Source of the DNA: an uncultured Candidatus Peribacteria bacterium
GTDB lineage: Bacteria > Patescibacteriota > Gracilibacteria > UBA4473
Assembly: GCA_964625805.1 (NCBI GenBank)
Contig: CAZVBV010000001.1
Coordinates: 1-38,100 of the forward strand
DNA length: 38,100 bases
Reading direction: 5' to 3'
Under the pieces are notes generated by a model. That model was given only the letters and a program-made list of their open reading frames with translations. It ran no database searches and was not told the DNA's origin. This document shows, one piece after another, positions 1,124 to 25,254 of the stretch. Positions within the stretch are counted from its first letter, which is position 1, and every line of letters begins with the position of its first letter. The translations under genes and the position numbers were made by a program.

Positions 1124-1383
1124 TTTTCTTGTTCGTTTTTTTGCCACTTAACTCCCCCTTCTACTCGGTTGCGAATGAAGATGATAAAAAGGACTACGAG
1201 AATAACAAGGTCCACGAGGAACTGAAAAACATCATCCCCTGTCATCGTTGCGGTAAAGAGGTTGTTCACTCTCCCTATAATGATAATGAGAACGAGTGTA
1301 ATAACCGTAGATGTCCACCCTTCCCATGTTGCAGGAACGAATCCATAGCCCGTTTGTTTTTGTTTGAACCAGTATTTTTTCAT
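1120..1383 (-). CDS. small membrane protein (two predicted TM helices), hypothetical
   Basis: 87-aa ORF with an ATG start, two hydrophobic stretches (TSTVITLVLIIIIG, FLVDLVILVVLFIIFI) and a stop/start ATGA overlap with the peptidase gene. The overlapping 77-aa ORF 1232..1465 looks non-coding. Confidence 0.55.
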   Translation of the reverse strand: MKKYWFKQKQTGYGFVPATWEGWTSTVITLVLIIIIGRVNNLFTATMTGDDVFQFLVDLVILVVLFIIFIRNRVEGGVKWQKNEQEK

Positions 1384-1647
1384 GTGGGAGAAGTGTAATT
1401 AAAAATCCCCCTCCTTTCAATTCCATAATTCTCTCCTTAAATATTAAAAATATATAAACAGTCATTCCAAATCCGAATCGCCGAATTTGCTATCCCTTTG
1501 GGGTTTGGGGAGAAACCGTGTTTGAGCGTCAACAGGACTCAGCAACTATTTAATAGCACACGAGCGAGTTTTTTCTCCCCAAAAGTTTTTGGTTCTTTTT
1601 AATTATAAAAAGAACAGTCCTGCCGATATCCACCATCGATAAAAGAA

Positions 1648-1701: not shown

Positions 1702-3000
1702 CTACAATTTGTCGTAATCATGCATCACGAGCTGTGCGTTGATTCGTCGAATCAAGTCGAGAATAACCCCCACCACAATAATCATTCCGGCTCCGGAGAT
1801 GAAGAGTGAGATCGCGTTTGATCCTCCTGAAATCCATCGTTCGAAGATAAGTGGAACAACGGCAACCGCTGTCAAAAAGGAAGCTCCCCAGAAGCAAAGT
1901 CTCTGTGTGGTTTCGTCCAAGAATTTCTCAGTCTCAGGTCCTGGTCGGTATCCTGGGATAAATCCTCCGCGTTTCTGAATGTTCTCCGCCACCTTCTTTG
2001 GTTCAAAAACAATAGAGACATAGAAGTATGTAAATCCGAAGATAAGTGCTCCGTAGAACACGTTGTACCAGAATGTTGGAGATCCTGGATTGAGGTATTT
2101 CAATGAAAAGTCTGCAATGCTTTGCAACACTGGTGACGCTGATTGTGAGAAAAATTGTGCCAAGATAGATGGCAAACTCACGAGTGACACCGCGAAAATG
2201 ATCGGAATCATTCCGGCTTGGTTGATTTTGAGTGGAAGAAAAGACTTCTGTTGTCCTCCCAGTCGCCGTGTCGCATACACGACAGGGACTCGTCTATCCG
2301 CTTCTGATACGTAGATAATGAAGATTGTCAGTCCAAGTGTCGCAATGATAAGTGAGAGAATCACTGGCATTTCTGCTGCCTGAAACGCTCCTCCAATTTG
2401 CGTTGGAACCGTTGCTACGATACCTGCAAAAATCAAAAGTGAGATTCCATTTCCAATTCCTTTCTCTGTAATAAGCTCTCCGAGCCACATCATAAAGACC
2501 GTTCCTGCTGTCGCTACTACCATCATTGGTAGGATTGTTGCCACATCAGTTACATCTACAATCGCACCTCCTGGTGAGAACTTGTTGAGCAAGGCCATCA
2601 TTCCGTAACTCTGCACAAAGGCGAGTGGAATGGTAAGGAGTCGTGTATATTGGTTGATTTTCTTTTGTCCTTGTTCTCCTTCTTTTTTGAGATTTTCAAG
2701 AGAAGGAACTACTACTCCTAACAATTGCATGATAATCGATGCATTAATGTAGGGGGTTAATCCCATAAGAACGATTGAGAATCGTTCCATCGCTCCTCCT
2801 GTCAGAAGAGAGAAGACCGCTAAGGCCGATCCTTGGTTCTGATTTTCGAGAAGGAATTTAATCTTTTCTACGTCTGCCCCCGGAATCGTAATGTGGGCTG
2901 CGAGACGAGCAACGACGAGAACAAGAATCGTGAAAATGATCTTATTCCGGAGCGATTTTGTCGCCCAAATCTGTTTTAATGTATTTAATAGTTTCTCCAT
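1702..3000 (-). CDS. secY: preprotein translocase subunit SecY
   Basis: Multi-TM protein with typical SecY blocks (FSIVLMGLTPYINASIIMQLL, GISLLIFAGIV, IPGYRPG). The track start at 3042 is TTG and overlaps the predicted promoter. ATG 3000 (MEKLLNTLKQIW) is preferred. Confidence 0.95.
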   Translation of the reverse strand: MEKLLNTLKQIWATKSLRNKIIFTILVLVVARLAAHITIPGADVEKIKFLLENQNQGSALAVFSLLTGGAMERFSIVLMGLTPYINASIIMQLLGVVVPSLENLKKEGEQGQKKINQYTRLLTIPLAFVQSYGMMALLNKFSPGGAIVDVTDVATILPMMVVATAGTVFMMWLGELITEKGIGNGISLLIFAGIVATVPTQIGGAFQAAEMPVILSLIIATLGLTIFIIYVSEADRRVPVVYATRRLGGQQKSFLPLKINQAGMIPIIFAVSLVSLPSILAQFFSQSASPVLQSIADFSLKYLNPGSPTFWYNVFYGALIFGFTYFYVSIVFEPKKVAENIQKRGGFIPGYRPGPETEKFLDETTQRLCFWGASFLTAVAVVPLIFERWISGGSNAISLFISGAGMIIVVGVILDLIRRINAQLVMHDYDKL

Positions 3001-3011
3001 GCGTTCAAAAA

Positions 3012-3049
3012 ATGCCCGATGACTGTACAAATTCAAGCACAATTGTCAA
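3012..3049 (-). promoter_or_regulatory. predicted sigma70-type promoter of secY plus conserved +1 element
   Basis: The minus strand reads TAAAAATTGACA-N13-TTTGTACAGT-C-ATCGGGCAT-TTTTT. The -35 TTGACA is at 3049..3044, the spacer is 16 nt, and the -10 TACAGT is at 3027..3022. The ATG lies about 15 nt after the expected start site. Confidence 0.5.
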
Positions 3050-3121
3050 TTTTTACAAAGGGTTTTTATTTCTCTTAATATACGTGTTTCTTACTTTTTT
3101 TTAAAAACCTCCAAAAACTAT

Positions 3122-3149
3122 TTGACAGCATTAGATTTCTTGCTACTAT
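3122..3149 (+). promoter_or_regulatory. predicted 16S rRNA promoter
   Basis: TTGACA (3122..3127), a 16-nt spacer, then TACTAT (3144..3149). An A/T-rich UP-like tract precedes it and a GC-rich discriminator CCGCCAGC follows it. Confidence 0.55.
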
Positions 3150-3185
3150 CCGCCAGCTTTCTAACCGAAAGCAGATCTAAAAGCT

Positions 3186-3207
3186 CTTTTTCATTTCGAA
3201 CGCATGT
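3186..3207 (+). other. 5' strand of the pre-16S processing helix
   Basis: TTTTTCATTTCGAACGCATGT pairs with 4888..4909 (GCATGCGTTCGAGATGAAAGGG) over about 22 bp including G-U pairs. The helix encloses the whole 16S, as RNase III stems do. Confidence 0.7.
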
Positions 3208-3315
3208 CGGGTTCTTTCAAGAACTCGATACAAAGAAAAAAACAATTATTCCTTTGAATTCCTTGTCTTCCGGACGAGGTTTCAAAAATTTATTACATTC
3301 TAGTAAATTAAACTC

Positions 3316-4796
<1,481 letters not shown>

Positions 4797-4887
4797 TCCA
4801 GAGGCGATCAGGTATTCTCACTTCGGTGAGAGAGAAGCACGGAGTTTATTTTTATAATTGATACTCCAGGTGTAACACCTATCGGTC

Positions 4888-4909
4888 GCATGCGTTCGAG
4901 ATGAAAGGG
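4888..4909 (+). other. 3' strand of the pre-16S processing helix
   Basis: Complementary to 3186..3207 (see that feature). Confidence 0.7.
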
Positions 4910-4958
4910 AGTTTTTCGTATAAAAAAAATGCTTGCATTTATTTTTATGAAAAACGGA

Positions 4959-5111
4959 CTGAACATCTACATAGTGATGTGAAAGAGTAATCTAAAAAGA
5001 GAGCCTTCGGGCTCTCTTTTTTGTGTTACGATTTGAACATCTCACGAAGTGATGAAAGAGAGTTTGTTTTTTGCATTACAATCTGAACATCTACGCAGTG
5101 ATGAAAGAGAG
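4959..5111 (+). repeat. three imperfect direct copies of a roughly 30-nt module (CTGAACATCTAC..AGTGATG..AAAGAG)
   Basis: Copies lie at 4959..4987, 5033..5062 and 5083..5111. Each contains a small CATC/GATG hairpin. Copy 1 is followed by the intact terminator. Copies 2 and 3 are followed by what looks like decayed terminator remnants (AGAGAG + T-run, or AGAGAGCAT). Confidence 0.6.
4996..5023 (+). terminator. rho-independent terminator closing the 16S transcription unit
   Basis: AGAGAGCC-TTCG-GGCTCTCT stem-loop (4998..5017) followed by a TTTTTT tract. Confidence 0.75.
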
Positions 5112-5125
5112 CATAAAAAGAACGA

Positions 5126-5154
5126 TTGACAGCTTGGTTGTTTTTTGTTAAATG
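5126..5154 (+). promoter_or_regulatory. predicted promoter upstream of ORF 5186
   Basis: TTGACA (5126..5131), a 16-17 nt spacer, then TGTTAAATG (extended -10-like). Confidence 0.4.
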
Positions 5155-5185
5155 TTATTCTGATTGCACTTCTAATTTTTAAAAC

Positions 5186-5509
5186 ATGCTCCAAAAATTT
5201 GAAGTCGGCTCCGCAACGAGAGTTCGAAACGCAACAAACGAGCCTGTTGACACTGTTTTTCCTTGCCCCAAAGAATGCCCTCATTTAAAAAAATGCACAG
5301 AAAATAACGTGCTTAGCAAGCTTGATGGTGTCGTTTTTAGTATCAAAAATATTGTTACGTGGAACCTCATGGAGAAAGGAATCCCTCTTTTTCAAGAAAA
5401 TAAAATTGCATGCGGAGAAAACGAAGACATTGTGTTGTACGATCCAAACCTAAAAATAGAAACGAAGAAGCCCCATCCTCCTGGTCAAGAAGCGAAGGAC
5501 AGCATGTAA
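5186..5509 (+). CDS. hypothetical small Cys-containing protein (107 aa)
   Basis: ATG-initiated ORF behind a consensus -35 promoter. It has a balanced composition and a CPKECPHLKKC motif. I recognise no homology, so coding status is uncertain. Confidence 0.35.
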   Translation: MLQKFEVGSATRVRNATNEPVDTVFPCPKECPHLKKCTENNVLSKLDGVVFSIKNIVTWNLMEKGIPLFQENKIACGENEDIVLYDPNLKIETKKPHPPGQEAKDSM

Positions 5510-5512
5510 GAA

Positions 5513-5640
5513 AGCTTTACTTCACCAGATGGATCTACACTTTCCTGTGTCTATTTTTCAAGAAAAATCGTTAACACAAAAAGCCCCTCTTAAGGAGCTT
5601 TACTTCACCAGCATGCCGTGCTTTCCTAAGTCGATTTTTC
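5513..5640 (+). repeat. two roughly 46-nt direct repeats (AGCTTTACTTCACCAG-N10-CTTTCCT..GTC.ATTTTTC)
   Basis: Copy 1 is at 5513..5559 and copy 2 at 5596..5640. They lie in a roughly 450-nt stretch with no convincing ORF. Confidence 0.5.
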
Positions 5641-8640: not shown

Positions 8641-9404
8641 TATTCAAATTCTAACAGAACTGGACAATGGTCGGAACCCATCTGGTCGTTTAAATATTCA
8701 TTTTTTTTTACGCGCGGAAGTATTTTTTCGTCCACAAAGAAATAATCAATTCGCCACCCCACATTTCTGGTTCGCGCTCTGGTGATCACATGCCACCACG
8801 AGTACACATCGCGCGTGTCGGGGTTTTTAGTTCTCCATACATCAATCCATCCATCCTCGATCCATTTGCTCAACCACGCTCGTTCCCGTGGGTGAAATCC
8901 AATCTTCCCGTCGTTGTCTTCTGGTCGCGCTAGATCAATCGCCTCGTGTGCACAGTTCACATCTCCAGTGAAGATGACCTGCCTGCCTTCTTTGCGGAGG
9001 GCATTTACGGAGTTCAAGAATTTCTCATAAAAAACTAATTTTCCATCCCATGCTTCGGGCGACTTTCCGCCGTTAGGGAAATACACACCAAGAATCGTTG
9101 TGTTCTCAATGTCGACACGAGCAATACGCCCTTCTGTGTCTTCGAAGTCCGGCATTCCTGAGCTAAACTCGGGGTTCATTCCTCGAACCCAAATCGCTGT
9201 TCCCGCATACCCAGGTTTTTCTGCCGAATGGTAAAACTGCTGATAGTCTGCATATTTTTCAATCAATGATTGCACCTGTTCTTCTTTGCATTTCGTTTCT
9301 TGGATGAGAAATACATCAGGATTGTGGTTTTTAAAAAACGCCTCAAGGTCACCCTTGCGCTCCACCGCCCTGATCCCGTTCACGTTCCAAGAGATGATTT
9401 TCAT
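8640..9404 (-). CDS. xth: exodeoxyribonuclease III (AP endonuclease, EEP fold)
   Basis: MKIISWNVNGIRA, FLIQETK, GDVNCAHEAIDL and SDHCPVLLEF motifs. Confidence 0.93.
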   Translation of the reverse strand: MKIISWNVNGIRAVERKGDLEAFFKNHNPDVFLIQETKCKEEQVQSLIEKYADYQQFYHSAEKPGYAGTAIWVRGMNPEFSSGMPDFEDTEGRIARVDIENTTILGVYFPNGGKSPEAWDGKLVFYEKFLNSVNALRKEGRQVIFTGDVNCAHEAIDLARPEDNDGKIGFHPRERAWLSKWIEDGWIDVWRTKNPDTRDVYSWWHVITRARTRNVGWRIDYFFVDEKILPRVKKNEYLNDQMGSDHCPVLLEFE

Positions 9405-9435
9405 CAGCGGAATAATACCACAACTTCAAAACTCT

Positions 9436-9668
9436 CTCCTGTCATTCCGAGCCTCCTTCTCCTTTTTTTATCTTCCCTGAGCCCCCCTCTTTTTTGTCAT
9501 CCCGGAATCCCGGAGGGATGTCCGGGATCTAGTCATAATAAACACTCTTTATGCCAGGCTTTAGCCAATTTCAAAAAACACTCTTTTGTCATTCCGAGCG
9601 TAGCCGAGGAATCCCTTCCTTATGTCAAACAAAAAGGGATCTCTCCGCTTCGGTCGAGATGACAAGTA
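9436..9668. repeat. cluster of four TGTCAT-hairpin repeats filling the xth / cysteine-desulfurase intergenic gap
   Basis: 9436..9456 is a truncated copy. 9494..9539 reads TGTCAT-CCCGGA-N14-TCCGGG-ATC-TAGTCATAA. 9586..9615 reads TTGTCATTCCGAGCGTAGCCGAGGAATCCC. 9636..9666 is a reverse-orientation copy with a compensated stem (ATCTC/GAGAT). The spurious ORFs 9270..9662 and 9551..9766 are read-throughs of these repeats. Confidence 0.75.
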
Positions 9669-9680
9669 TTGGGCAAAATA

Positions 9681-10730
9681 TCACCCTCTCAACTCCTCCA
9701 CATAGTGTTTCAACGTCTCGCAAAAGTTCTCTACCGCTTTATCGGTCAGGAATTTATGCAAACTGATACGAACGGGATACTGCCACTCAGGATCTTGTTC
9801 GATGTACGCAATAGTCTTGGTCGGAACCAGAATATCGCTTGTACACGCCGATCCCGTCGACACACAGAGGCCTTCTTTCTCGGATAACACCGACATCAGT
9901 TCCGCTCCTCTCAATCCTTTGAAAGCGACTGAAATGGTTCCTGGAATACGATCAAAGTCGCTACTGTGAATCTTCGAATCAGGAATATTCTTCACGCAGG
10001 TTTCAATTTGCTCTGTCCATCGTTTTAATTTTTCAACGGTTTCTTTCTCCTCTTCGAAGGCAATCCGAAACGCTTCTGCCATTCCCGCAATCAACCAACA
10101 ATTCTTCGTGTGTCTGTCTTTGGACAGTTCTGGGAAATCTTCAGGATTCTTTAAATACAAAAGTCCGACCATCTTCGGTCCGTAGATTTTTTGCGGAGCG
10201 AAGCTCACGGCGTCCACGTGATCGATGTCGAATTTTAGTCCTTTTCCAATCGCCTGCGACCAATCCTCGAGAATGATCGTTTCTGGAAATCGTTTTTTGA
10301 AATTCGTTGAATCAAACATTTCTCCCGTTTCGGCGTTTGCTTTCATTTGCGCCAAGACTTTTGGCGGGTTTTTAAAGAGTTCGTCACAGAATGCCCGTGG
10401 GCAGAAGTGGTTCTTTTCGGGAACTTCATCAAGAATCGACGAATGTTCCACGCGAGAACAGGTAATATTCTCCCATCCAAATCGCTTTGAACACGCCCAG
10501 AGAAAGCGACGGTTGCTGTCGGTACCAGAATAGGTGACCGCTAACTGTGCCGCTGTAACGCCCAATAAGTCCGCAATGGTGCTGAGAGACTCGTCGATTA
10601 CTTTTTGCGCCTCAAATCCACGCACATGTCTGGAATTATTGTTCCCAAACTTTTCCATGTGCTTCTCCATGACCGCGATAACTCGCGAATCGAGAGGGGT
10701 TGTGGCTGCCGCGTCAAAATAGTTTTCCAT
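9681..10730 (-). CDS. class V aminotransferase-fold cysteine desulfurase (NifS/IscS-like)
   Basis: N-terminus MENYFDAAATTPLD; PLP-lysine region SFAPQKIYGPK (HK replaced by QK); active-site loop STGSACTSD. The track start at 10793 is TTG, so ATG 10730 is preferred. It overlaps the upstream methyltransferase gene by 17 nt. Confidence 0.85.
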   Translation of the reverse strand: MENYFDAAATTPLDSRVIAVMEKHMEKFGNNNSRHVRGFEAQKVIDESLSTIADLLGVTAAQLAVTYSGTDSNRRFLWACSKRFGWENITCSRVEHSSILDEVPEKNHFCPRAFCDELFKNPPKVLAQMKANAETGEMFDSTNFKKRFPETIILEDWSQAIGKGLKFDIDHVDAVSFAPQKIYGPKMVGLLYLKNPEDFPELSKDRHTKNCWLIAGMAEAFRIAFEEEKETVEKLKRWTEQIETCVKNIPDSKIHSSDFDRIPGTISVAFKGLRGAELMSVLSEKEGLCVSTGSACTSDILVPTKTIAYIEQDPEWQYPVRISLHKFLTDKAVENFCETLKHYVEELRG

Positions 10731-11352: not shown

Positions 11353-11420
11353 TTCAACGCGAACGTACACCAGGTTCTTTTTTCGCGCAAGATTGTACTC
11401 ACAAAAATACCCCCTAAAAA

Positions 11421-11457
11421 TTGACACTTTCCCCTCAGTTTGTACAGTATGCCCGAT
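11421..11457 (+). promoter_or_regulatory. predicted promoter of fusA plus conserved +1 element
   Basis: Reads TAAAAATTGACA-N13-TTTGTACAGT-ATGCCCGAT-TTTT. The -35 is at 11421..11426, the spacer is 16 nt, and the -10 TACAGT is at 11443..11448. The ATG is at 11473. Confidence 0.55.
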
Positions 11458-11472
11458 TTTTAACTTACTTTT

Positions 11473-13551
11473 ATGACTGGCAAAAAATACCCATTAGACA
11501 AGGTCCGAAACATCGGAATTATTGCGCATATCGATGCGGGAAAAACAACCGTTACTGAGCGTGTTCTCTTTTATACTGGTAAATCTCACAAGATTGGTGA
11601 GGTGCACGAGGGAGAAGCAACAATGGACTGGATGGAGCAGGAGCAAGAACGAGGAATTACAATTACCTCTGCTGCGACAACTTGTTTTTGGAAAGATTGC
11701 CAAATTAATATCATCGATACCCCAGGGCACGTAGACTTCACAGTTGAGGTTGAACGTTCTTTGCGAGTGCTTGATGGTGCGGTTACCGTCTTCGACGGAG
11801 TGGCCGGAGTAGAACCACAATCAGAAACTGTATGGAGACAAGCGGACAAATACAGCGTTCCGCGAGTTTGCTTTATTAATAAGCTCGACCGAACAGGAGC
11901 GTCTTTCTGGCGTTCATACGATTCAATTATTGAACGACTTACAAAACAAGCGTTCCCGATTCAAATTCCTATCGGAATTGAACAAGGGTTTAGCGGGATT
12001 ATCGATTTGATCGAGATGAAAGCAACGCTCTACAAAGACGAAATGGGGAAAGAGTTTGAAGTGGTAGATATTCCAAACGAAGAACTTGATCTTGCTCGTG
12101 AATGGCGAGAAAAAATGCTGGAAGCCGTGGCTTCAACAGACGAAGAATTGATGGAACGATACCTCGATGGGAAAGAGCTTACTTCTGAAGAGATTATCAA
12201 AGCCATGCGAAAAGCAACTATTGCGAATGAGTTCATTCCAGTATTAACGGGAACGGCGCTCAAAAACAAAGGAGTGCAACCAATGCTCGATATGGTTGTG
12301 GCATTATTGCCATCACCACTCGACATTCCTTCTATTCCCGGAACAGACCCAAAAACAGATGAGCCTATGGAAAGACACGCCGATGTCACAGAACCTTTAT
12401 CTTCATTGGCATTTAAGATTGCAACCGATCCTTTCGTAGGACGACTGACTTTCGTACGAGTGTACTCTGGAAAATTGGAAGCGGGAAGTTACGTGTACAA
12501 CGTATCAAGCGGACAGAAAGAACGAATTGGGCGACTCCTTTTGATGCATGCCAACACACGAGAAGAAGTGAAAGAAATTGGAGCTGGACATATCGGAGCG
12601 GTGGTTGGTTTGAAAAAAACTCGAACTGGAGACACTCTCTGTGATGAGAACAACCAAATCATCCTTGAAAACATTGAGTTCCCAGAACCAGTGATTTCGA
12701 TTTCTATTGAGCCAAAAACAAAGGCCGATCAAGAAAAGATGGGAGTTGCGTTACAGAAATTATCAGAAGAAGATCCGACATTCCGAGTGTCTACAAACGA
12801 AGAGACCAACCAGACTATTATTTCTGGAATGGGAGAGCTTCACTTGGACATCATTGTGGATCGTATGAAACGAGAGTTTAGTGTTGAAGCGGATATTGGA
12901 GCGCCACAGGTTGCGTACCGAGAAACGATTCAGGACGAAGTAGTGGCCGAGTACCAACACAAGAAACAATCAGGAGGACGGGGGCAGTTTGGACACGTTG
13001 TGTGCCGACTTAAACCAGGAGAAGTTGGATCAGGATTCAGCTTTAAAAATGTTATCAAAGGAGCCTCTATTCCAAATGAATACATCCCAGGGTGTGAGAA
13101 AGGATTCAAAGAAGCGATTACTCGTGGAATCTTGGCTGGTTACCCAGTGGTGGACATAGCCATTGAACTGTTCGATGGGTCTTACCATGACGTAGATTCT
13201 TCTGAATTAGCGTTTAAGATCGCTTCCGCTCAGGCATTTAAAGAAGGAGCTCTTCGGGCAAACCCAGTGATTCTCGAACCAATCATGAATGTAGAAATTG
13301 TTTCTCCTGAAGATTACTTGGGAGACGTGATGGGAGATGTTTCATCCAGGCGTGGACTGATTCAAGAAACGGGAGATCGAGGTCTTGCGAAATTCGTGAA
13401 GGCAAAAATCCCTCTAGCAGCCATGTTCGGATATGCGACAGACCTCCGGTCAGTGACGCAAGGACGAGCAAGTTACACTATGGAATTTGCGAACTACGAC
13501 AAAGTACCAAAGAGTGTGGCTGCAAAGATTATCGAAGAACGAAAAGGATAA
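11473..13551 (+). CDS. fusA: translation elongation factor G
   Basis: 692 aa with [22 protein letters not shown] and NKLDR GTPase motifs and full EF-G domain order. Confidence 0.97.
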
Positions 13552-13576
13552 TCTCAATTACCAGAAACCAAGCAAA

Positions 13577-13603
13577 AGGCCTCGCGAAAGTGGGGTCTTT
13601 TTT
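13577..13603 (+). terminator. rho-independent terminator of fusA
   Basis: AGGCCTC-GCGAAAGT-GGGGTCT stem (with G-U pairs) followed by TTTTTT. Confidence 0.6.
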
Positions 13604-13640
13604 GTAGCACCACCCCCGTTGAGGGAGGTATTTGTTTTAG

Positions 13641-13672
13641 TTCCTCCCCTTGCAGGGGAGGATAGGTGGGGT
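13641..13672 (+). repeat. 32-nt direct repeat, left copy, flanking the DUF559 gene
   Basis: TTCCTCCCCTTGCAGGGGAGGATAGGTGGGGT contains the hairpin CCTCCCCT-TGC-AGGGGAGG. It is 31/32 identical to 14122..14153. Confidence 0.85.
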
Positions 13673-13679
13673 ATCGAAA

Positions 13680-14057
13680 TCACAGTCCTTCTAGAACGCG
13701 CAGAAGCTCCTCCACACACCCTTCACAATTCCTCATGACATCATTGTTCGCAAAACGAACCACTTTTATCCCTTGCAACTCAAGAAACTTCGTCCGTATT
13801 TTATCCTGCTCAATTGCCTCGTCTGAAATAAAATGACTATCTCCGTCGATCTCAATGACAAGCTTCTTTTCGAATGAATAAAAATCCACAATATATTTCC
13901 CAACCGAACACTGGCGCCGAAATTTAATTCCTTGTATTTGCCTGTCTCGAAGATAATACCAAATCTTTTGCTCTGGCTTTGGCATGTCGTTGCGCAGATT
14001 TTGTCTTAATTTTTTATATTTTTTTCGATTTATTATTTCACTCATTATTAAAAACAT
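13680..14057 (-). CDS. DUF559 / Vsr-like (PD-(D/E)xK) endonuclease domain protein
   Basis: 125 aa. KFRRQCSVGKYIVDFYSFEKKLVIEIDGDSHF...DKIRTKFLELQGIKVVRFANNDV matches the DUF559 pattern (RRQ..g.YivDF....kl.IE.DG..H......D..R...L...G..vlRf.N..v). Confidence 0.85.
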   Translation of the reverse strand: MFLIMSEIINRKKYKKLRQNLRNDMPKPEQKIWYYLRDRQIQGIKFRRQCSVGKYIVDFYSFEKKLVIEIDGDSHFISDEAIEQDKIRTKFLELQGIKVVRFANNDVMRNCEGCVEELLRVLEGL

Positions 14058-14068
14058 ACCCCCTCTAA

Positions 14069-14087
14069 CTCCCCCTGCAAGGGGGAG
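14069..14087. repeat. inverted-orientation copy of the GC hairpin (CTCCCCCTGCAAGGGGGAG)
   Basis: Perfect palindromic hairpin 12 nt upstream of the DUF559 start. It is related to the hairpin core of the 32-nt repeats but flipped. Confidence 0.6.
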
Positions 14088-14121
14088 AATTTATAGGATT
14101 TTAACATTAGAGGCATCACAA

Positions 14122-14153
14122 TTCCTCCCCTTGCAGGGGAGGCTAGGTGGGGT
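14122..14153 (+). repeat. 32-nt direct repeat, right copy, flanking the DUF559 gene
   Basis: TTCCTCCCCTTGCAGGGGAGGCTAGGTGGGGT, 31/32 identical to 13641..13672. Confidence 0.85.
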
Positions 14154-14167
14154 GGTCCCCCCTTCTT

Positions 14168-14193
14168 TTATTTCCTCTCAAACAAGATTCCAG
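14168..14193 (-). repeat. relic copy of the metG 3' terminus (last 8 codons plus stop)
   Basis: TTATTTCCTCTCAAACAAGATTCCAG matches 16149..16174 (TTATTTCCGTTCAAACAAGATTCCGG) at 23/26 positions. On the minus strand it still reads GILFERK-stop, but no metG-like ORF lies upstream of it. Confidence 0.75.
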
Positions 14194-14205
14194 TAACAAA
14201 GAGTC

Positions 14206-15978
14206 TCACTCCTCCAAGAATCCGCCAACCTGATTCTCCCAGAGATTCTTATATTCTCCCCCCTCTTTTTGAATCAATTCCTTGTGAGACCCTTCTTCCA
14301 AGACCTTCCCATCGCTAATCAAGACGATTCTGTCCATTTTCTTGAGCGTAGAGAGTCGATGCGCCACAACAAGTGTTGTTTTGTTTTTCATCAATGTTTC
14401 CAGCGCCTGTTGAATCAGGGACTCTGCCACCGAATCCAAAGAACTCGTCGCCTCGTCCAAAACCAATATAGGAGCGTTTTTGAGCATAGCACGAGCAATG
14501 GCTACTCGTTGTCGCTCTCCACCTGACAACTTAATGCCTCTTTCTCCTACCAGTGTTTTGTAACCATCCGTGGTGTTTCGAATAAACTCATCCGCATGTG
14601 CCATTTTGGATACAACAACCACTGATTCTTTTTTTGCTTTCAAATTCCCGTATTGGATGTTTTCAAAGAGGGAACGATGAAATAACAATGGCTCCTGTGG
14701 TACGTATGAAATTGCGGATCGGAGATCTTCTTGTCGAATTTGTGTAATATCCTGACCATCTATGAAAATTCCCCCCTTCTTTATCTCGTTAAATCGAAGA
14801 AGTAATTTTGTAATTGTAGATTTTCCCGCTCCAGAGCGCCCCACCAAACCAACATGCTCTCCTGGTTTTACTTTGAAATTAAAGTTTTCAAAGAGGGGTC
14901 TTCCTTTTGTGTATTCAAATTTCACATCTTTAAATTCAATCATTCCCCGGTGAATACGACAGACCTCAGGTTTGTCAGGATCGAGAATAGTTGGGGTCTT
15001 TTGAATGATTTCTGTCATTTCTTCTGCATCAGAAAAGACGGTATACAAATCCTTAATCACTTGTCCAAAATTCCAAAAGTTCATGTAAATTCCAACGAGA
15101 TACGCCTGTGTAAGCACCATTGTTCCGATCGTTACGGTTCCATTTATCCATCCTTGAATCAAAATCCAAAACGTCGCCGCTTCTAAAAGCGTCATCAAAG
15201 ATGCTTGCAAGAGGTCTTGCTTGATCCCAAAGATCCATGTTTTCATTCGCGCATCATTCTCTTTTTGCGTTTGGGTAAACATTTTTTTTCGTTCAAACAA
15301 AGATCGGGCAAACATTTTTATTGTAAAAGCATTTGAAATACCATCGGCAAAAAGCCCCTGTGATTTTGTTTCCTCCTTCGCTCGAATAATTTCATATTTC
15401 CTTCGTTTTAAAGAGAAAAAGCTCACTACCAACCCGTACACAACGGCCCACACAAGAAGCATAATCGCAATTAATGGAACCAGTGGAAAAAGAACCACCA
15501 CCGAAAACAATAATCGCAAAATATTCGGCCAAAAATTAAAGTAGATCATGTCGTCCAGTCGCTCAAACCCGCGAACAAATCGTCCGGCTTTGGCCACCAA
15601 GCTTCCAACAAAACTGTCGGCAAAGAAGTCTATCTGGTGTTTGTGAATGTTTACAAAACATACGTTTTGCAAATCTCGCATTCCCTTCGCTTGAAAATGC
15701 GTAATCAACCAATCTCCCACCCGCTCTAGTCCAGGATAAATAAGAATCGCAAAGCTTGTTACAATAATAAAAATACGTAATAGCTCTGGCCAGAGGCTCA
15801 TTCTGTCTTCCCCAGAAAATTCGGTAATCAGATCAAAAAACTCTTTGTAATAAAACTGAACATAGATCGCTAACGCAATCGAAACCGCTTTCACTAAAAA
15901 TTTAAGATAGAAATAGGCTGAATACTTTTTTGAAGTATTCCAGTAATATTTAAGTGTTGATTGTGTTGTGTTCTTCAT
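14206..15978 (-). CDS. ABC exporter, fused permease/ATPase (MsbA/type I exporter-like)
   Basis: N-terminal six-helix TMD, Walker A GRSGAGKST, signature LSGGERQR, Walker B ILVLDEATSSLD. The track start at 16038 is TTG, so ATG 15978 (MKNTTQ) is preferred. Confidence 0.9.
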   Translation of the reverse strand: MKNTTQSTLKYYWNTSKKYSAYFYLKFLVKAVSIALAIYVQFYYKEFFDLITEFSGEDRMSLWPELLRIFIIVTSFAILIYPGLERVGDWLITHFQAKGMRDLQNVCFVNIHKHQIDFFADSFVGSLVAKAGRFVRGFERLDDMIYFNFWPNILRLLFSVVVLFPLVPLIAIMLLVWAVVYGLVVSFFSLKRRKYEIIRAKEETKSQGLFADGISNAFTIKMFARSLFERKKMFTQTQKENDARMKTWIFGIKQDLLQASLMTLLEAATFWILIQGWINGTVTIGTMVLTQAYLVGIYMNFWNFGQVIKDLYTVFSDAEEMTEIIQKTPTILDPDKPEVCRIHRGMIEFKDVKFEYTKGRPLFENFNFKVKPGEHVGLVGRSGAGKSTITKLLLRFNEIKKGGIFIDGQDITQIRQEDLRSAISYVPQEPLLFHRSLFENIQYGNLKAKKESVVVVSKMAHADEFIRNTTDGYKTLVGERGIKLSGGERQRVAIARAMLKNAPILVLDEATSSLDSVAESLIQQALETLMKNKTTLVVAHRLSTLKKMDRIVLISDGKVLEEGSHKELIQKEGGEYKNLWENQVGGFLEE

Positions 15979-16148
15979 CGTAAAATTGATTGTTCGTCTT
16001 TTGGGTTTGCGAGGAGACTCCTCTGGGGCGGCATGCAAAGAGAATGTTTTATCTCTAATAGCACATACTTTCCATGAAACGAATGAACTTGTATCCTGTT
16101 ACAATTATCAATAATAACGAGAAACGTCTACCCCACCTGTTTTAGAAT

Positions 16149-17576
16149 TTATTTCCGTTCAAACAAGATTCCGGCATCACCGACCCCGTCCCCGACCCCG
16201 TCCCCAAGCATCGCCTTCATTCTTGGCGCACTTTCAGGAAGCAGGACTTCCGCCATTTCCGCGAGCTGTTCGAGTTTTTGCAACAAGGTTGCAAATATCT
16301 TTTTAGAGCTCTCCAAATCAGTCTTCGCCAAAGTCCACACCTGCGTCTCGTTGAGAAGTTCGTTCGCAGAACCCACCACGGAGAAGTAATAATCGATCGC
16401 TGTTTTGAGTTTGTTTTGCTCCATAAATTCTTCGAATTCCTTCATCTCGCCTCCGGTTAGTGCGGAACCTTCTGGTTTTTGTCCGTCGAGAAACTTATGA
16501 ATAAGAACGATAACTCTGTTGAAAAGATTCCCTACTCCGCCCGCGAGCTTCGTTCTGTAGAAGTCATCGAAGTGTTCAAGGGAGAAGTCTCCATCATTTC
16601 CAAATTCAAACGAACTCAAAAGTCCGAGTCGCAAAGCATCGTTTCCGTATTTCTCTGACAATGTAAGCGGTGAGATAACATTCCCCAAAGACTTACTCAT
16701 CTTCTCTCCGTTCACGGTAAAGAACCCGTGTGCAAATACTTCTTGTGCTGGATCCATACCGGCGGACAAAAGCATTGCTGGCCAAATAACACAGTGAAAT
16801 CGCGTGATATCTTTCCCCACGATATGAACTGCGGACTTCCAAAAGTCGCGCCGCTCGTCTGTGTCGATTCCTGAGTAGTAATTAATCAAAGCATCGAACC
16901 ACACATAGATCTTGTGCTCGTCGTCCCATGGAAGTGGTATCCCCACCTCGGCGCTTTCTCGAGAGATAGAAACATCTTCGAGTCCTGATTTAATAAAGCT
17001 GATCACTTCATTCTTCCGTGTTTCAGGAAGGAGAAGTTTCGGATTTTTTTCATAGAGCGCCAAGAGCTTGTCTCCGTATTCCGACAGTTTGAAGAAGTAG
17101 TTTTCTTCTTCTAAAATATCTGGCTTTGTCTTGTGATCAGGACAACATCCGTTCTCGTCGAGATCGGTTTCTTTTAAAAATGTTTCACAACCCGTGCAAT
17201 ATTTCCCTTCGTATTTTCCTTTGTAAATATCGCCCTTGTCATGGATTTTTGTGAGAATTTCATGCACCGTTTTTTGGTGTCTTGGCTCTGTAGTACGGAT
17301 AAAATCGTCGAACTGAATCCCGGTCTGCTCCCATGTTTCTTTCCACGTCTTCGCCATTTCTTCCAAATATTCTGGGATTGGTTTTCCCGAAGCTTTCGCG
17401 GCATCAACCGTTTTTTGTGAGTTCTCGTCCGTTCCGGTAAGAAAGAAGACGTTTTCTGCGCCTAGTTTTTTCCGCCAATATCGCGCCAGTGTGTCAGTCG
17501 CCAAAGTACAATACGCATGTCCAATATGAGGAACGTCGTTCACGTAATAAATGGGCGTGGTAAGATATTTTTTCAT
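16149..17576 (-). CDS. metG: methionyl-tRNA synthetase (short form with zinc knuckle)
   Basis: HIGH-type motif PHIGHAY, KMSKS motif, CTGC...CCPDH knuckle. The track start at 17579 is GTG, directly followed by ATG 17576. The C-terminus has a GDGVGDGVGD tandem repeat. Confidence 0.95.
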   Translation of the reverse strand: MKKYLTTPIYYVNDVPHIGHAYCTLATDTLARYWRKKLGAENVFFLTGTDENSQKTVDAAKASGKPIPEYLEEMAKTWKETWEQTGIQFDDFIRTTEPRHQKTVHEILTKIHDKGDIYKGKYEGKYCTGCETFLKETDLDENGCCPDHKTKPDILEEENYFFKLSEYGDKLLALYEKNPKLLLPETRKNEVISFIKSGLEDVSISRESAEVGIPLPWDDEHKIYVWFDALINYYSGIDTDERRDFWKSAVHIVGKDITRFHCVIWPAMLLSAGMDPAQEVFAHGFFTVNGEKMSKSLGNVISPLTLSEKYGNDALRLGLLSSFEFGNDGDFSLEHFDDFYRTKLAGGVGNLFNRVIVLIHKFLDGQKPEGSALTGGEMKEFEEFMEQNKLKTAIDYYFSVVGSANELLNETQVWTLAKTDLESSKKIFATLLQKLEQLAEMAEVLLPESAPRMKAMLGDGVGDGVGDAGILFERK

Positions 17577-17583
17577 CACAGGA

Positions 17584-17611
17584 GTTATACCCGAAACAGG
17601 GCTGATTTCAA
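17584..17611 (-). promoter_or_regulatory. predicted metG promoter placing the start site at or next to the ATG
   Basis: The minus strand reads TTGAAA (17611..17606), a 16-nt spacer, TATAAC (17589..17584), then 7 nt (TCCTGTG) and ATG. Confidence 0.4.
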
Positions 17612-17679
17612 TAACAAACTTCCTTTGAATCTCGACTAAAATCTTTTTTTACAAAGGAGTGTGATAGAGTTTACAAAGA

Positions 17680-20600
17680 ATGAAACTGTCTTTTGTAAGC
17701 AAAACGATTCACCCCTCTTCCGGAATTTACGCTTTCCTTTTGGTGATTTTGTTCGTGGCTGTCGGGGTGGGGCTTTTTCCGCTACAAGCTTCTGCAGCAT
17801 TTTCCTACGCCAAAACGATTGATCTGATTGGAGGTTCAGGGGCCGGAACTAATTATGTTCTCCCTCTTGTAATTAAATCAGACATGGATGATGCAATTTC
17901 GGACATTGGGCTAGATGGGAATGCTTCTGTTTTTCCACACGATATTTCTTTTTTTGATAATGATGGGATTACTGCTCTTGATCACTGGGTTGAAGATTTG
18001 ACCGCAGATCAGATCACGGTATGGGTTGAAGTAAAAGATGATCTTGGATCAGCGCAGTCAATTATTCTTAAATATGGAGATTCGGGGGCTACGACACTTT
18101 CAAATGGAGCGAATACGTTTCCATTCTTTGATGACTTTGAAAGTTACACCGTTGGGACACTTCCTTCCCCTTGGACTATTTATAGTAATACAAACGGTGG
18201 GAGTATGAGTGTTCAGGCTGATCCTCTCGATGCCGGAAACAAAATAATGAAACTGTGGAGCTCTTCCTTTGGTCTTTGGCGATCTGTAAAAGTATCCTTT
18301 ACTACCGCTGGTACATCTTCCGCTCTTCATTGGAAACGATATGAAGGTGGATCAGGAAGACACAAGGGGGCTGTGATCATATTCGAGGGATCGACTGCTA
18401 TTGTTACGACTTGGTTTGATAGTTATTATCCACAGTGGGATAGTTACAATGGAAGTGCTTATGTTGATTTTAGTCCTAATTTGGATTCAACCTACCCCAT
18501 AAGTGGGTGGCATAAAATGGTGGATGAGGTTGTTGGTTCGGGATATACATTAAACTACGATGGAACGGCATACACCGGAGTTCAAAGAGGTTCTCAAACA
18601 AATGGAATCGATGGTTTTAGTTTCGGATCAATGGATACTGATCCAAGTCATGTACAAGGAATCGATGATGTTTTTGTACGAAAGGTGGTGAACCCTGAGC
18701 CCGATGTTTTAAATTTAACACCAGTAGCCTCCTCCGTCACATTCTCAGGTACAGCGAAGGTCGGGCAACTTCAAACAGGAAGCTATATATATGCAGATGC
18801 TGACAGTGATCTCGAGGGAGTTTCAACCTTTAGATGGCTGAGAGATAATGTAGCTATAGATGGAGCCACCTCGCAAACCTATACCACCGTCCAAGCAGAC
18901 GTCGGAACAACACTTAAATTTGAAGTAACGCCCCTCGCCACTACAGGAGAAACTCCAGGAACAGCGGGAGGAGGGAGTGGGACAGCGATCACTAATTCAA
19001 CGCCTACTGATATCACCGCAAGTTCAGAATCAATCGCTTCCAATAGTCCATCGGGAACAACCGTGGGAACGCTCTCCGCTACCGATGCGAATCCGAGTGA
19101 TACATTTTCGTTTACTCTTTCCTCTGGAGCCGGTTGTACGGCTACTGATAATGTGAAGTTTACTATCTCCGGAACAAGTCTCGAAATAGCTGAAGTGACT
19201 GATTTTTATAGAAAAAGTTCGTACACCGTCTGCGTCCAAGTCGCCGATCAAGACAGCGCAACCTACCGAGAAAACTTTGAGATTCTTGTCCCTGTCCCGG
19301 CAACGGTTGAAGTCGCTCCTTCTTCAACTGGAGAAGCCGCGCTTCCCAATGTTCCCAGGATCGTCCTCGATGAAGAAAAGACAGTCGATCTTTCCGCCGC
19401 GATCGCCACGGTTTCGGGAGGAAATAGAGATGTGAGTGTTGGAGGAACAACCTTCAACCTCGAGGCGTATACCGCGGGATCACTCAGTGGAGCAAACGTG
19501 AAAGAGACGGCTGGAATAAGTGTCAGGCAGGCAACACGAATCAGCACCTCTCAAGATAATCTTATTCTCACACACACGGAAACCCCTGGTGTAGAACTCC
19601 AAATCCCAGATCAAACCGTCGTCTTTGGAGATAGTGATGCCGACTTTTCTATTACTCCACCAGTCGACATCGAGACCACGGATGTTACAAGTGTTCCTTC
19701 TAACTTTACTGTACAAAAAGCAATCTCTGTCGGAAGTACGACGGAAACCTATGTTTTTGATACCCCCGTTGTGGTTGTTTTCAGCGGTGCCTACGATCGT
19801 ATGTTAATGCGTCAGACGGGAGCTTCTGCCTGGACAAACCTCTCTCAGTGTTCTGGAACTTTTGCTTCCCCGACAATGCCTTCTTTCCCCGAAGCTTGTT
19901 GGATTGCGGACAAGTCCGTCGGACAGACCCGTGTTTACACGTTCCACTTAACTGAATTTGGCGGACTCCTTGAAAATAATTCCGGAAGCGGGAAACAAGC
20001 ATTGTTTCACGAAGGCATGAAAAGATCTGAAATACGGCAATCTGGATATGGGACCGATAAAAAAACATTTGCTGCTAGTTATAAACTCTCTCTTGCGCAG
20101 GCGGAAACACTCAACCAAGGAAAAGCTGGGATCGCGCAATTTATTACCACCACGTGGAAAAATAATAAGTTTCTCCGATATATATCAGGGCGCACATCCG
20201 TTGCTTCTCAACGCGCCAGGGCACTCCAGCAGGTGAAATATCGTATATCAAATAAACACGACTTACGATCTGATATACAACTTGTAATGCGGCAACGAAA
20301 CAAAAACACTCTCCTCGCTTCTGCTCCCAAGAAAAATTCCCTCCAAGAGAAGTTCAACCGAATCGCAAAGATATTTCGGCCAAAAGGAGTCCGCCGAAAA
20401 CGAGCTTCTCAGCGCAAAACACGGGCAAGTAGCCGAATAGCAACCTCTAATATGACACTCCGAACACGGGCTCTTGTTGAGAGGCAGAAAAGAAGAAAAC
20501 AAGAAGCCTCTAAGAACTACTTCTCCAGTGCTCCAAAAATAGAAAAACCTCTTTCTCGCATTCAGCTGTACCAGAAAGCGCGATTTGAACGAAGTCAGCT

Positions 20601-20739
20601 TCGCATTAAACGACCGAAAAGTAAGGGTGTTCTCCGACATCTTCAAAACAATCTGTTCCTCTTTTCTGATTTCCTCAAAACCTCTCTCTTTGAGATGTCT
20701 GACATGCTTTCTACGAATCTCTTTAAGGCCTTGCAATAA
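17680..20739 (+). CDS. large secreted surface protein: signal/anchor, DUF2341-like, LamG/concanavalin-like, Ig-like and cadherin-like domains, poly-basic C-terminal tail
   Basis: The N-terminal hydrophobic segment ends in ASAAF. FFDNDG..LDHWVE....TVWVEV......I.LKYG fits DUF2341. TFPFFDDFE starts a LamG-like region. SIASNSPSGTTVGTLSATDANPSDTFSFTL...FTISGTSL...YTVCVQVADQD is cadherin-like. Roughly the last 270 aa are very K/R/Q/S-rich. Confidence 0.8.
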   Translation: MKLSFVSKTIHPSSGIYAFLLVILFVAVGVGLFPLQASAAFSYAKTIDLIGGSGAGTNYVLPLVIKSDMDDAISDIGLDGNASVFPHDISFFDNDGITALDHWVEDLTADQITVWVEVKDDLGSAQSIILKYGDSGATTLSNGANTFPFFDDFESYTVGTLPSPWTIYSNTNGGSMSVQADPLDAGNKIMKLWSSSFGLWRSVKVSFTTAGTSSALHWKRYEGGSGRHKGAVIIFEGSTAIVTTWFDSYYPQWDSYNGSAYVDFSPNLDSTYPISGWHKMVDEVVGSGYTLNYDGTAYTGVQRGSQTNGIDGFSFGSMDTDPSHVQGIDDVFVRKVVNPEPDVLNLTPVASSVTFSGTAKVGQLQTGSYIYADADSDLEGVSTFRWLRDNVAIDGATSQTYTTVQADVGTTLKFEVTPLATTGETPGTAGGGSGTAITNSTPTDITASSESIASNSPSGTTVGTLSATDANPSDTFSFTLSSGAGCTATDNVKFTISGTSLEIAEVTDFYRKSSYTVCVQVADQDSATYRENFEILVPVPATVEVAPSSTGEAALPNVPRIVLDEEKTVDLSAAIATVSGGNRDVSVGGTTFNLEAYTAGSLSGANVKETAGISVRQATRISTSQDNLILTHTETPGVELQIPDQTVVFGDSDADFSITPPVDIETTDVTSVPSNFTVQKAISVGSTTETYVFDTPVVVVFSGAYDRMLMRQTGASAWTNLSQCSGTFASPTMPSFPEACWIADKSVGQTRVYTFHLTEFGGLLENNSGSGKQALFHEGMKRSEIRQSGYGTDKKTFAASYKLSLAQAETLNQGKAGIAQFITTTWKNNKFLRYISGRTSVASQRARALQQVKYRISNKHDLRSDIQLVMRQRNKNTLLASAPKKNSLQEKFNRIAKIFRPKGVRRKRASQRKTRASSRIATSNMTLRTRALVERQKRRKQEASKNYFSSAPKIEKPLSRIQLYQKARFERSQLRIKRPKSKGVLRHLQNNLFLFSDFLKTSLFEMSDMLSTNLFKALQ

Positions 20740-20791
20740 AAGACGCAACTTCCTTTTGCAATTGTCCAAAAACCTCTACAATGTCGCGGCA

Positions 20792-22643: not shown

Positions 22644-23666
22644 ATGGCAGAAGACATCAAAAAATCAGCACTCGCGTCAGCTCTCGCTCAAATTGAAAAA
22701 GACTTTGGAAAGGGCTCAATTATGCGACTTGGAGATCACGAAAAAACCAAGATCGAAACGGTTAGTTCTGGATCTATTTCTATAGATCTTGCCCTTGGTG
22801 GCGGATATCCAAAGGGAAGAATTATCGAGGTCTACGGCCCAGAAAGTTCTGGAAAAACAACACTGTGTTTACACGCAGTAGCCGAATTCCAAAAGGCCGG
22901 AGGAACGGTCGCCTTTATCGATGCAGAACACGCACTCGACCCAAGTTATGCCGAAAAAGTCGGCGTTAATACGGACGACCTTCTTCTTTCTCAACCTGAT
23001 TCTGGAGAACAGGCATTGGAAATTGTTGAAGCTTTGGTTCGCTCTGGAGGGGTAGATCTTATCGTTGTCGACTCGGTCGCAGCGTTGACTCCTCGGGCAG
23101 AAATCGAAGGAGCAATGGGAGATGCACAAATGGGACTCCAGGCTCGACTCATGAGTCAGGCGTTGCGGAAACTAACGGCAGTGTCTTCTAAAATGGGAAC
23201 AACGATTATCTTTGTAAATCAAATCCGAATGAAGATCGGGGTGATGTTCGGAAATCCTGAAACCACCACTGGTGGAAATGCATTGAAGTTTTACTCCTCT
23301 CTTCGGGTGGAAGTCCGGAAAGGAGCAAAGATCGAATCGGGAACCGGCGATGCCAAGGAGGCAAATGGAAATGAGGCCCGCGTTAAAATCGTGAAGAACA
23401 AAGTTGCGCCACCATTCCGAACGGCGATTGTTGATATCATGTTTAACAAGGGGATTTCTTGGGCAGCAGACCTTCTGGAAACGGCTGTAAAATTAGAAAT
23501 TGTCGAAAAGGCAGGCGCCTTTTATTCCTACAGGGCAGGGAAGGATGAACCCGTTAAACTCGGTCAAGGGAAGGCAAAGGCTGTCGAATTCTTCGAAGAT
23601 CCAAAGAATAAAAAACTCGTCACTGGTATTGATAAAATCGTCCGAGAAAAAGCGACACTCAATTAA
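22644..23666 (+). CDS. recA: recombinase RecA
   Basis: GPESSGKTT Walker [10 protein letters not shown], and [25 protein letters not shown] loop L2. Confidence 0.97.
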
Positions 23667-24934: not shown

Positions 24935-25254
24935 GATAATAAATCTCTTATCTTCCCTGTTGCTTGTGCTGATTTGTCGAGTTTGAATCGAAGCTTCATT
25001 GGCCGTCGGAGCTGAACCTGTTGGGATACTTCGTATTCCATCTTCGGTCCTACTTTTTGAATCGATTTGATAAAGCCTTTTGGCCCCCCGATGCTTCGCA
25101 CGTAGACGTCGGCTATTCCGAGGTCTCCTGCCACCTCAATTTCGGTTACGGTCACAAACCCAACCTGGTTGGGAGAAAGAAATTGCTGAAAGAGTGGAGG
25201 AATTTTTTCCTTCAAGACACTGGCCACTCGTTTGCTTCGTTCCGACATTTTCAT
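24931..25254 (-). CDS. rbfA: ribosome-binding factor A
   Basis: SERSKRVASVLKEKIPPLF....GFVTVTEIEVAGDLGIADVYV matches the RbfA KH-like fold pattern. The stop overlaps the rdgB start (ATGA). The start is uncertain (ATG at 25263, 25254 or 25248), and the track start at 25344 is TTG. Confidence 0.8.
   Translation of the reverse strand: MKMSERSKRVASVLKEKIPPLFQQFLSPNQVGFVTVTEIEVAGDLGIADVYVRSIGGPKGFIKSIQKVGPKMEYEVSQQVQLRRPMKLRFKLDKSAQATGKIRDLLS

Follow-up and report, generated by a model that had tools for sequence, protein, structure and literature searches.

How did a single transporter gene come to lie between two copies of the end of a housekeeping gene, in DNA with no integrase or transposase nearby? 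The question is raised by a stretch of 38,100 nt (hereafter the window) of a Candidatus Peribacteria genome of 956,735 bases (G000), in which a gene for an ATP-binding cassette (ABC) exporter follows metG, the gene for methionyl-tRNA synthetase, and is itself followed by a second copy of the metG 3' terminus. Bacteria of the Candidate Phyla Radiation (CPR) cannot be grown, and gene gain in them is known almost only by inference. A first-pass annotation of the window, made from its letters, had described the arrangement as an att-like duplication left by DNA that integrated into the 3' end of metG. We compared the window with three genomes of the same genus (G001, G002 and G003), with an outgroup genus (G022) and with further loci and contigs (L numbers; L160, for example, is a metagenome contig). 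The comparison indicates that an old gene gain left this feature as a fixed scar, that it is not a self-mobile element, and that the gain came about most likely by one-sided homologous recombination.

The duplicated metG terminus and the gene between its copies

The two 26-mers, at 16149..16174 and 14168..14193, are exactly the sequences that the first-pass annotation had quoted, identical at 23 of 26 positions and different at 3. With a repeat finder the match grows to 32 nt, between 14167-14198 and 16148-16179, at an identity of 84% and a distance of 1981 nt, and the similarity persists on proper alignment. The 26-mer pattern occurs at these two sites only in the whole genome; it is therefore not a dispersed repeat, a candidate that we rejected. 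We also regard chance similarity or a chimeric assembly as a negligible explanation. When the window was shuffled 100 times with its dinucleotides preserved, no shuffle contained a second match at 3 mismatches or fewer, and the structure recurs in independent assemblies. The exact MetG protein was found on 8 contigs from at least 5 samples, all 8 of which show metG and then the ABC gene, and the 6 contigs with the exact elongation factor G (EF-G) protein have the same gene order. Samples that contain this strain include SRR7526679, SRR8526173 and JGI 3300022882. Because independent contigs from several samples, together with two other species, share the structure, it is not an assembly artefact.

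Translation of both copies bears out the earlier reading that each encodes GILFERK followed by a stop, and that neither of the two internal differences (GAA/GAG and CGG/AGG) changes the amino acid. The true metG ends of relatives carry both variants: the working end in G000 has the codons of G002 (GAA CGG), and the second copy those of the real metG end of G001 (GAG AGG). Since each variant is found as a real metG end, both are natural alleles. The second copy is a non-functional, untranslated relic. We considered a functional peptide or a read-through extension of the ABC protein and rejected both, the relic being in another frame than the ABC gene, having no start codon and carrying a 10-nt deletion in L160.

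The metG gene itself is intact, ending in ...GDAGILFERK-stop, and matches its profiles (Pfam tRNA-synt_1g, E=1e-90; NCBIfam metG TIGR00398, 406.7 bits, over the cut-off); its product is 93-94% identical in amino acids to the MetG proteins of G001 and G002. Directly upstream of the duplicated terminus, at 16177..16205, it holds a 12-nt tandem repeat (GACGGGGTCGGG GACGGGGTCGGT) that reads GDGVGDGVGD and lengthens G000 MetG by 2 amino acids relative to G001, G002 and L160, which have GDKDKVGD or GDGDRVGD there.

As previously annotated, nothing lies between the copies but the ABC gene, with Pfam ABC_membrane and ABC_tran as its domains, and its 170-nt upstream region. The gene is intact and encodes Walker A, signature and Walker B motifs; its best NCBIfam matches are MsbA-related models, all under their equivalog cut-offs. 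It is 94-96% identical at the amino acid level and 88-94% at the DNA level in G003 and L160/L103, a relation that points to purifying selection. Outside this clade its nearest homologues are in Peribacteria, at 72-80% amino acid identity and in varied genomic contexts; in G006, G020, G051 and G014 it has different neighbours and no flanking duplication. The compositional comparison proposed in the first-pass annotation turned up nothing foreign: measured against 546 long open reading frames (ORFs), the gene, at 40.3% GC, stands at the 20th percentile for GC and at the 54th for GC at third codon positions (GC3). With Peribacteria as the nearest homologues and a typical GC3, this single-copy unit looks native to the family, and its sequence points to a related bacterium as the source, not a distant phylum.

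Empty sites, filled sites and the joint

In G001 and G002 the gene order is a lexA/recA block, metG, DUF559 and EF-G, with neither the ABC gene nor a DUF2341 gene, and no ABC homologue at E<=1e-60 was found anywhere in either genome. The first-pass annotation had proposed to check whether relatives have metG directly before the GC-hairpin region without an ABC gene; in these two genomes metG does lie directly before the GC-hairpin/DUF559 region, without an ABC gene, which supports the insertion reading. Window 17626..16140 is collinear with metG of both at 81-85% identity; the G002 alignment then skips from 16140 to 14104, and window 14193..11412 is collinear with G001 2808..5614, starting at the real metG end of G001. 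That single end aligns both to 16174..16147 and to 14193..14166, an overlap of 28 nt. The outgroup genus G022 has metG-EF-G, again without the ABC gene.

The filled site, with the same joint, is present in G003 and its metagenome twins L102, L157 and L164, and in L160/L103. Three species (G000, G003 and L160) thus share metG, the 170-nt spacer, the ABC gene and the relic; in L160 the relic is short of 10 nt, including the stop codon, and a metallophosphoesterase gene comes next, replacing DUF559. A species tree built from recA, lexA, a neighbouring ORF and the 5' part of metG has the form (outgroups, G001, (G002, (L160, (G000, G003)))), with support of 1.0 for the ABC-bearing clade; a second tree, from EF-G, is in agreement, with L107/L161 branching off at the genus base. 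Because the carriers form one clade, there was one insertion event, and a single gain on the stem of the G000/G003/L160 clade is the simplest reading. A second metG end within 6 kb was seen in 0 of 20 other family genomes, and the assembled contigs included no empty-site or excised variant of the G000 strain and no circular form.

The polarity could be turned around: metG, ABC and relic would be older than the clade, and G001 and G002 would have lost the ABC gene by deletion between the repeats, their empty sites being secondary. Deletion between the 28-nt repeats would indeed restore a perfect metG end such as these two genomes have, and site-level data give a weak resolution of how G001, G002 and the clade branch. 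At least two independent losses would, however, be needed, plus loss of the metallophosphoesterase gene, and the metG-EF-G order of G022 lacks the ABC gene. The early-branching L107/L161 can be read both ways, having an ABC orthologue beside the same EF-G region that is, in L107, not trailed by a relic. We regard this polarity as quite improbable; the same duplication-forming insertion would still be required earlier, so that the timing would be altered and not the nature of the event.

The far end of the inserted DNA can be placed by two edges that were set independently. The ABC gene of L107, without a relic, lies in the order ABC, REP-associated tyrosine transposase (RAYT; REP, repetitive extragenic palindromic), metallophosphoesterase, EF-G, and its ABC and EF-G proteins are respectively 80% and 92% identical to those of G000; blastn homology between G000 and L107 stops at window 14196. 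The similarity to metG has its edge at ~14195-14198. The joint accordingly lies at ~14195/14196, ~10 nt after the ABC stop (…CTTTGT/TGCTGGAATC…, the stroke showing its place); the two sides have one or two bases in common at most. The relic spans ~28 nt (14168..14195), of which 24 match the true metG end. The earlier statement that the relic begins 12 nt past the ABC stop codon (14206..14208) holds for the edge of the 26-mer, which is in a different frame, and not for the extent of the relic as given by the L107 and metG comparisons.

At its other end the segment begins with the spacer (16148..15979), which among 43 family genomes occurs in G000 and G003 only; the versions in L160 and G003 show 88-94% identity. 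The spacer is part of the DNA that was inserted or co-transferred. Within it, 10 nt past the working stop of metG, lies a 13-nt motif that resembles an inverted REP tail, AGGTGGGGTAGAC (16126..16138), an inverted near-copy of the REP tail AGGTGGGGTGGTC at 14145..14157. The REP-related motif that had been noted at 16129..16138 is therefore real, and the degenerate pattern AGGTGGGGT[AG]G[AT]C has two genomic occurrences only, 16138..16126 (minus strand) and 14145..14157 (plus strand). That the spacer begins with a degenerate inverted REP tail suggests an origin in a genome of the same group in which REPs follow metG.

G003 also holds an orphan 95-nt copy of the ABC 5' region, comprising 65 nt of upstream sequence and the first 10 codons (L171, G003:C29, 423..517). 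This copy is 87% identical to window 16043..15949, lies ~8 kb from the G003 ABC locus and has as neighbours a terminator hairpin, a gene for a small membrane protein and a large REP-like palindrome; it is absent from G000.

Candidate routes of gene gain

Homology-facilitated illegitimate recombination (HFIR) in metG is, in our judgement, the most likely route of ABC gain, a view that we hold with modest confidence. The comparison shows the insertion polymorphism, its single origin, where the joint lies and that the locus has no recombinase genes. About 1.98 kb, consisting of the 170-nt upstream region, one ABC gene and ~10 nt of its 3' flank, was added right behind metG once, in the common ancestor of G000, G003 and L160. 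The donor arrangement and the pathway that we infer are these. The donor would have been a related bacterium in which an ABC gene already lay downstream of metG; its DNA would have been taken up and paired homologously within metG, and an illegitimate joint would have linked its far end, just past the ABC stop, to the resident chromosome at a point ~28 nt short of the metG stop there. The metG end now at work (16149..16176) would then be donor-derived or shared with the donor, and the last 28 nt of the resident gene (14168..14195) would have been stranded beyond the ABC gene as an untranslated, functionless relic. No recombinase encoded by an element is involved, and purifying selection has kept the ABC gene since.

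The locus has continuous homology to relatives on the metG flank, which would be the anchor, and on the other flank a novel joint with little or no shared sequence. The window contains recA, and ComEC (PF03772) is encoded in all four genus genomes (G000-G003). Further, metG of G003 (L025, G003:C9, 10041..10576, and also L157, ~9300..9829) is a mosaic, its first 500 nt ~92% identical to G000 and its last ~400 nt 33-57%, falling to 33%; the 3' part resembles another genus, and the C-terminus is like that of G004. This gene has its own stop (…EILFERV), after which come directly a 146-nt remnant of an older metG 3' end (KKVFAVLLQKLEQL...GILFKRK-stop) and then the spacer and the ABC gene. The G003 gene thus records a second, independent recombination of this type in metG that left a relic; its geometry needs one homologous and one illegitimate crossover and does not suit simple circle integration.

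Several observations weigh against HFIR in metG. No genome with a native metG-spacer-ABC order and no relic was found. For L107/L161, the sole relative with no relic, every assembly breaks off within the ABC gene, as do all contigs with the L107 RAYT gene; this lineage is represented by Ga0307989_1007311 and ERZ27316312 k141_68730. Quartet site counts along metG were unresolved, its 3' part shows no foreign-origin signal, and sliding-window identity between G000 and G002 metG is flat at 81-89%. The ABC and metallophosphoesterase genes are neighbours in L160 and in the early-branching L107, which affects the polarity of some steps. Finally, a 10-nt direct repeat of target sequence likewise flanks the DUF2341 insertion next to metG, and two adjacent inserts with short target duplications could reflect a mechanism that makes duplications systematically.

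Two loci were considered as the donor arrangement and rejected, P0007 because it belongs to another organism and has pgi upstream, and P0008 because its context is yet another one. A mosaic signal in G000 metG was also sought; the flat identity to G002 gave none, and segment trees, like the quartet counts, were unresolved.

The DUF2341 repeat keeps integration of a circle through short homology among the candidates. In such a Campbell-type event, a circle of ~1.98 kb with the ABC gene and a stretch of ~28 nt that equals the end of metG would have entered by a single crossover within those 28 nt, duplicating the 28-mer on both sides; a reverse crossover could excise the insert precisely. A length of 28 nt is near the minimum usable by RecA. 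The insert is flanked by direct repeats and holds exactly one gene, as does the adjacent DUF2341 insert with its 10-nt repeat of target sequence, and the empty sites of G001 and G002 are exactly what precise excision would leave. Yet 10 nt are too short for a RecA-dependent crossover, a circle with that junction would itself require a prior illegitimate event, no assembly contains a circular form or an excision variant, and the 146-nt relic behind the foreign 3' half of G003 metG is ill-fitting in geometry. We judge a Campbell-type origin to be unlikely.

Site-specific integration is the explanation closest to the earlier, att-like reading. The 26-28-mer would be the att core for a trans-acting recombinase, for example the single Xer-like enzyme, and the ABC unit a small integrative cassette, not autonomous, that is directed at the 3' end of metG and supplies a new end in its place. 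Direct repeats at both ends and a regenerated 3' end of the target gene are what integrative elements produce, and the genome does encode a tyrosine recombinase. That gene, the sole PF00589 match in G000 (contig C8), is nonetheless single-copy and conserved in all four genus genomes, those with empty sites included. The insert holds only the ABC gene, its neighbours are MetG, DUF559, EF-G, DUF2341, LexA, RecA and similar, and no integrase or transposase lies within ~10 kb, in agreement with the first-pass annotation on this point. The tree shows one insertion event, none of the 20 other family genomes has a second metG end, L107 has the ABC gene without the repeat, copies of the repeat are found nowhere else in the genome, and the 28-mer, read directly, lacks the inverted-arm symmetry typical of recombinase core sites. 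We therefore consider site-specific integration very unlikely, and the footprint fits illegitimate recombination better. From the earlier reading, insertion at the metG 3' end with an intact end and a displaced copy stands; its att-like nature is not supported, given the missing integrase, the single event and the repeat-free L107.

A transposon or insertion sequence was rejected as well: there is no transposase, the insert ends carry no inverted repeats, and the ABC unit is single-copy. Known target-site duplications are far shorter than 28 nt. The idea of a dif site acted on by Xer was set aside, the 28-mer being coding and without inverted arms.

How does HFIR in metG compare with known systems? 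Integrative and conjugative elements, prophages and islands enter tRNA or housekeeping genes at the 3' end, for which they bring a substitute, and are flanked by attL/attR direct repeats. The metG insert resembles them in its flanking direct repeats, intact target and displaced end persisting beyond the insert, and differs in having no integrase, no excision or transfer genes, a single-gene cargo, a single event and a repeat that was not reused. Xer/dif-dependent integrative elements (IMEX) have no integrase and are flanked by two related ~28-nt sites, and the metG insert is like them in both respects; unlike theirs, the 28-mer here is coding, has no dif-like inverted arms and shows no sign of Xer action. 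In the loci for type VI secretion (the T6SS) of Vibrio cholerae, incoming modules reportedly recombine via a conserved upstream gene and leave remnants of displaced genes downstream. Here too DNA would have come in via a conserved upstream gene, with a remnant downstream; unlike those immunity-gene arrays under strong selection, the anchor is a housekeeping synthetase and the relic 28 nt long (146 nt in G003). Sequential displacement of T6SS effector genes in V. cholerae is described in PMC5361080.

HFIR itself is described for natural transformation in Acinetobacter baylyi, Streptococcus pneumoniae and Pseudomonas stutzeri; a definition and summary are given in PMC3240628. The metG locus shares with it one side continuous with homologous metG and another side with a novel joint of at most 1-2 shared nucleotides, the addition of gene-sized foreign DNA, and no need for a dedicated recombinase, RecA and ComEC being present. 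Unlike HFIR, which was observed experimentally, the event here is deduced from a natural, old case in a CPR lineage that is uncultured; no genome with the donor arrangement was recovered; and the joint overlaps the anchor, leaving a 28-nt duplicate, whereas HFIR more usually deletes recipient DNA.

The event is of a known kind and fairly ordinary, and the locus is a tidy example of it in an uncultured lineage. It offers a base-resolved case of gene gain, with empty and filled sites in one genus, an exact joint and a second scar in a sister species, and suggests that uptake of DNA from close relatives and one-sided homologous recombination add working genes beside essential genes without mobile-element machinery. 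The duplication is an evolutionary footprint without present-day function, and major views are unchanged by it.

Features of the locus and neighbouring gene content

Table 1. Features at the metG-ABC locus, in window coordinates.
Feature	Position	Strand	Remarks
metG, methionyl-tRNA synthetase, short form	16149..17579	-	476 aa from GTG 17579 or 475 aa from ATG 17576
Functional metG terminus, last 8 codons + stop, ~28 nt	16149..16176	-	GAA CGG allele as in G002
Spacer from metG stop to ABC start, 170 nt	15979..16148	-	Absent from G001/G002
ABC exporter, fused permease-ATPase half transporter, ABCB/MsbA-like, 590 aa	14206..15978	-	Pfam ABC_membrane + ABC_tran
ABC 3' untranslated bases, GACTCTTTGT	14196..14205	-	Alignable to L107 ABC 3' flank; end at joint
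Relic, displaced last ~28 nt of metG (..TGILFERK-stop)	14168..14195	-	Out of frame with ABC; no start codon
DUF559 gene within REP-bracketed cassette	13680..14057 (cassette 13641..14153)	-	Pfam DUF559 E=9e-34; 32-nt REP-like repeats D6/I1/I2; already next to metG in empty-site genomes
EF-G	11473..13551	+	Convergent
DUF2341 surface protein gene	17680..20739		Diverges from metG
recA	22644..23666		Within window

On the other side of metG from the ABC gene, the DUF2341 gene came in as a single-gene insertion of its own (17627..20746), which G003 also has and which G001, G002 and L160 lack. A perfect direct repeat of 10 nt, AAAGGAAGTT, flanks it on the minus strand at 17617..17626 and 20747..20756; the window has these two copies only, and among the shuffles the mean was 0.27 matches, with 3 of 100 reaching two. 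Could the whole neighbourhood of metG reflect a general, recombinase-free shuffling of single genes in Peribacteria via very short target identity? The ABC gene with its 28 nt, DUF2341 with its 10 nt and DUF559 with its 32-nt REP would then be three adjacent units, each flanked by a target repeat. We think this improbable; if it were so, gene-sized units would come in, and could leave precisely, as reversible cassettes upheld by the recombination of the host, in bacteria with tiny genomes and natural competence.

Between metG and EF-G lies a hot spot of change in gene content. Directly after the relic, the DNA (13603..14167), or its counterpart, varies by lineage when compared with L160 7475..8773, L025 12557..13217 and L107 753..2736: REP-DUF559-REP in G000, G001 and G002, a metallophosphoesterase gene in L160, a hairpin with a 108-amino-acid ORF in G003, and RAYT plus metallophosphoesterase in L107. 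The RAYT of L107, 177 amino acids long, lies directly downstream of the ABC gene (852..1385, minus strand) and scores 90.2 bits against NCBIfam NF047646 (cut-off 80); it has no homologue in G000, despite the REP-like hairpin repeats there. The two G003 contigs expected to join up between relic and EF-G have a common terminal sequence of 19 nt, CTAAAAAGTCCTAAGTTTT (L025, G003:C9 ~25160..25180; L152, G003:C29 ~14710..14730), whose genomic copies would be inverted; these common ends suggest an unassembled repeated element. Three further, diverged DUF559 genes lie on contigs C69, C17 and C68 of G000, with 33-42% amino acid identity to the one in the window.

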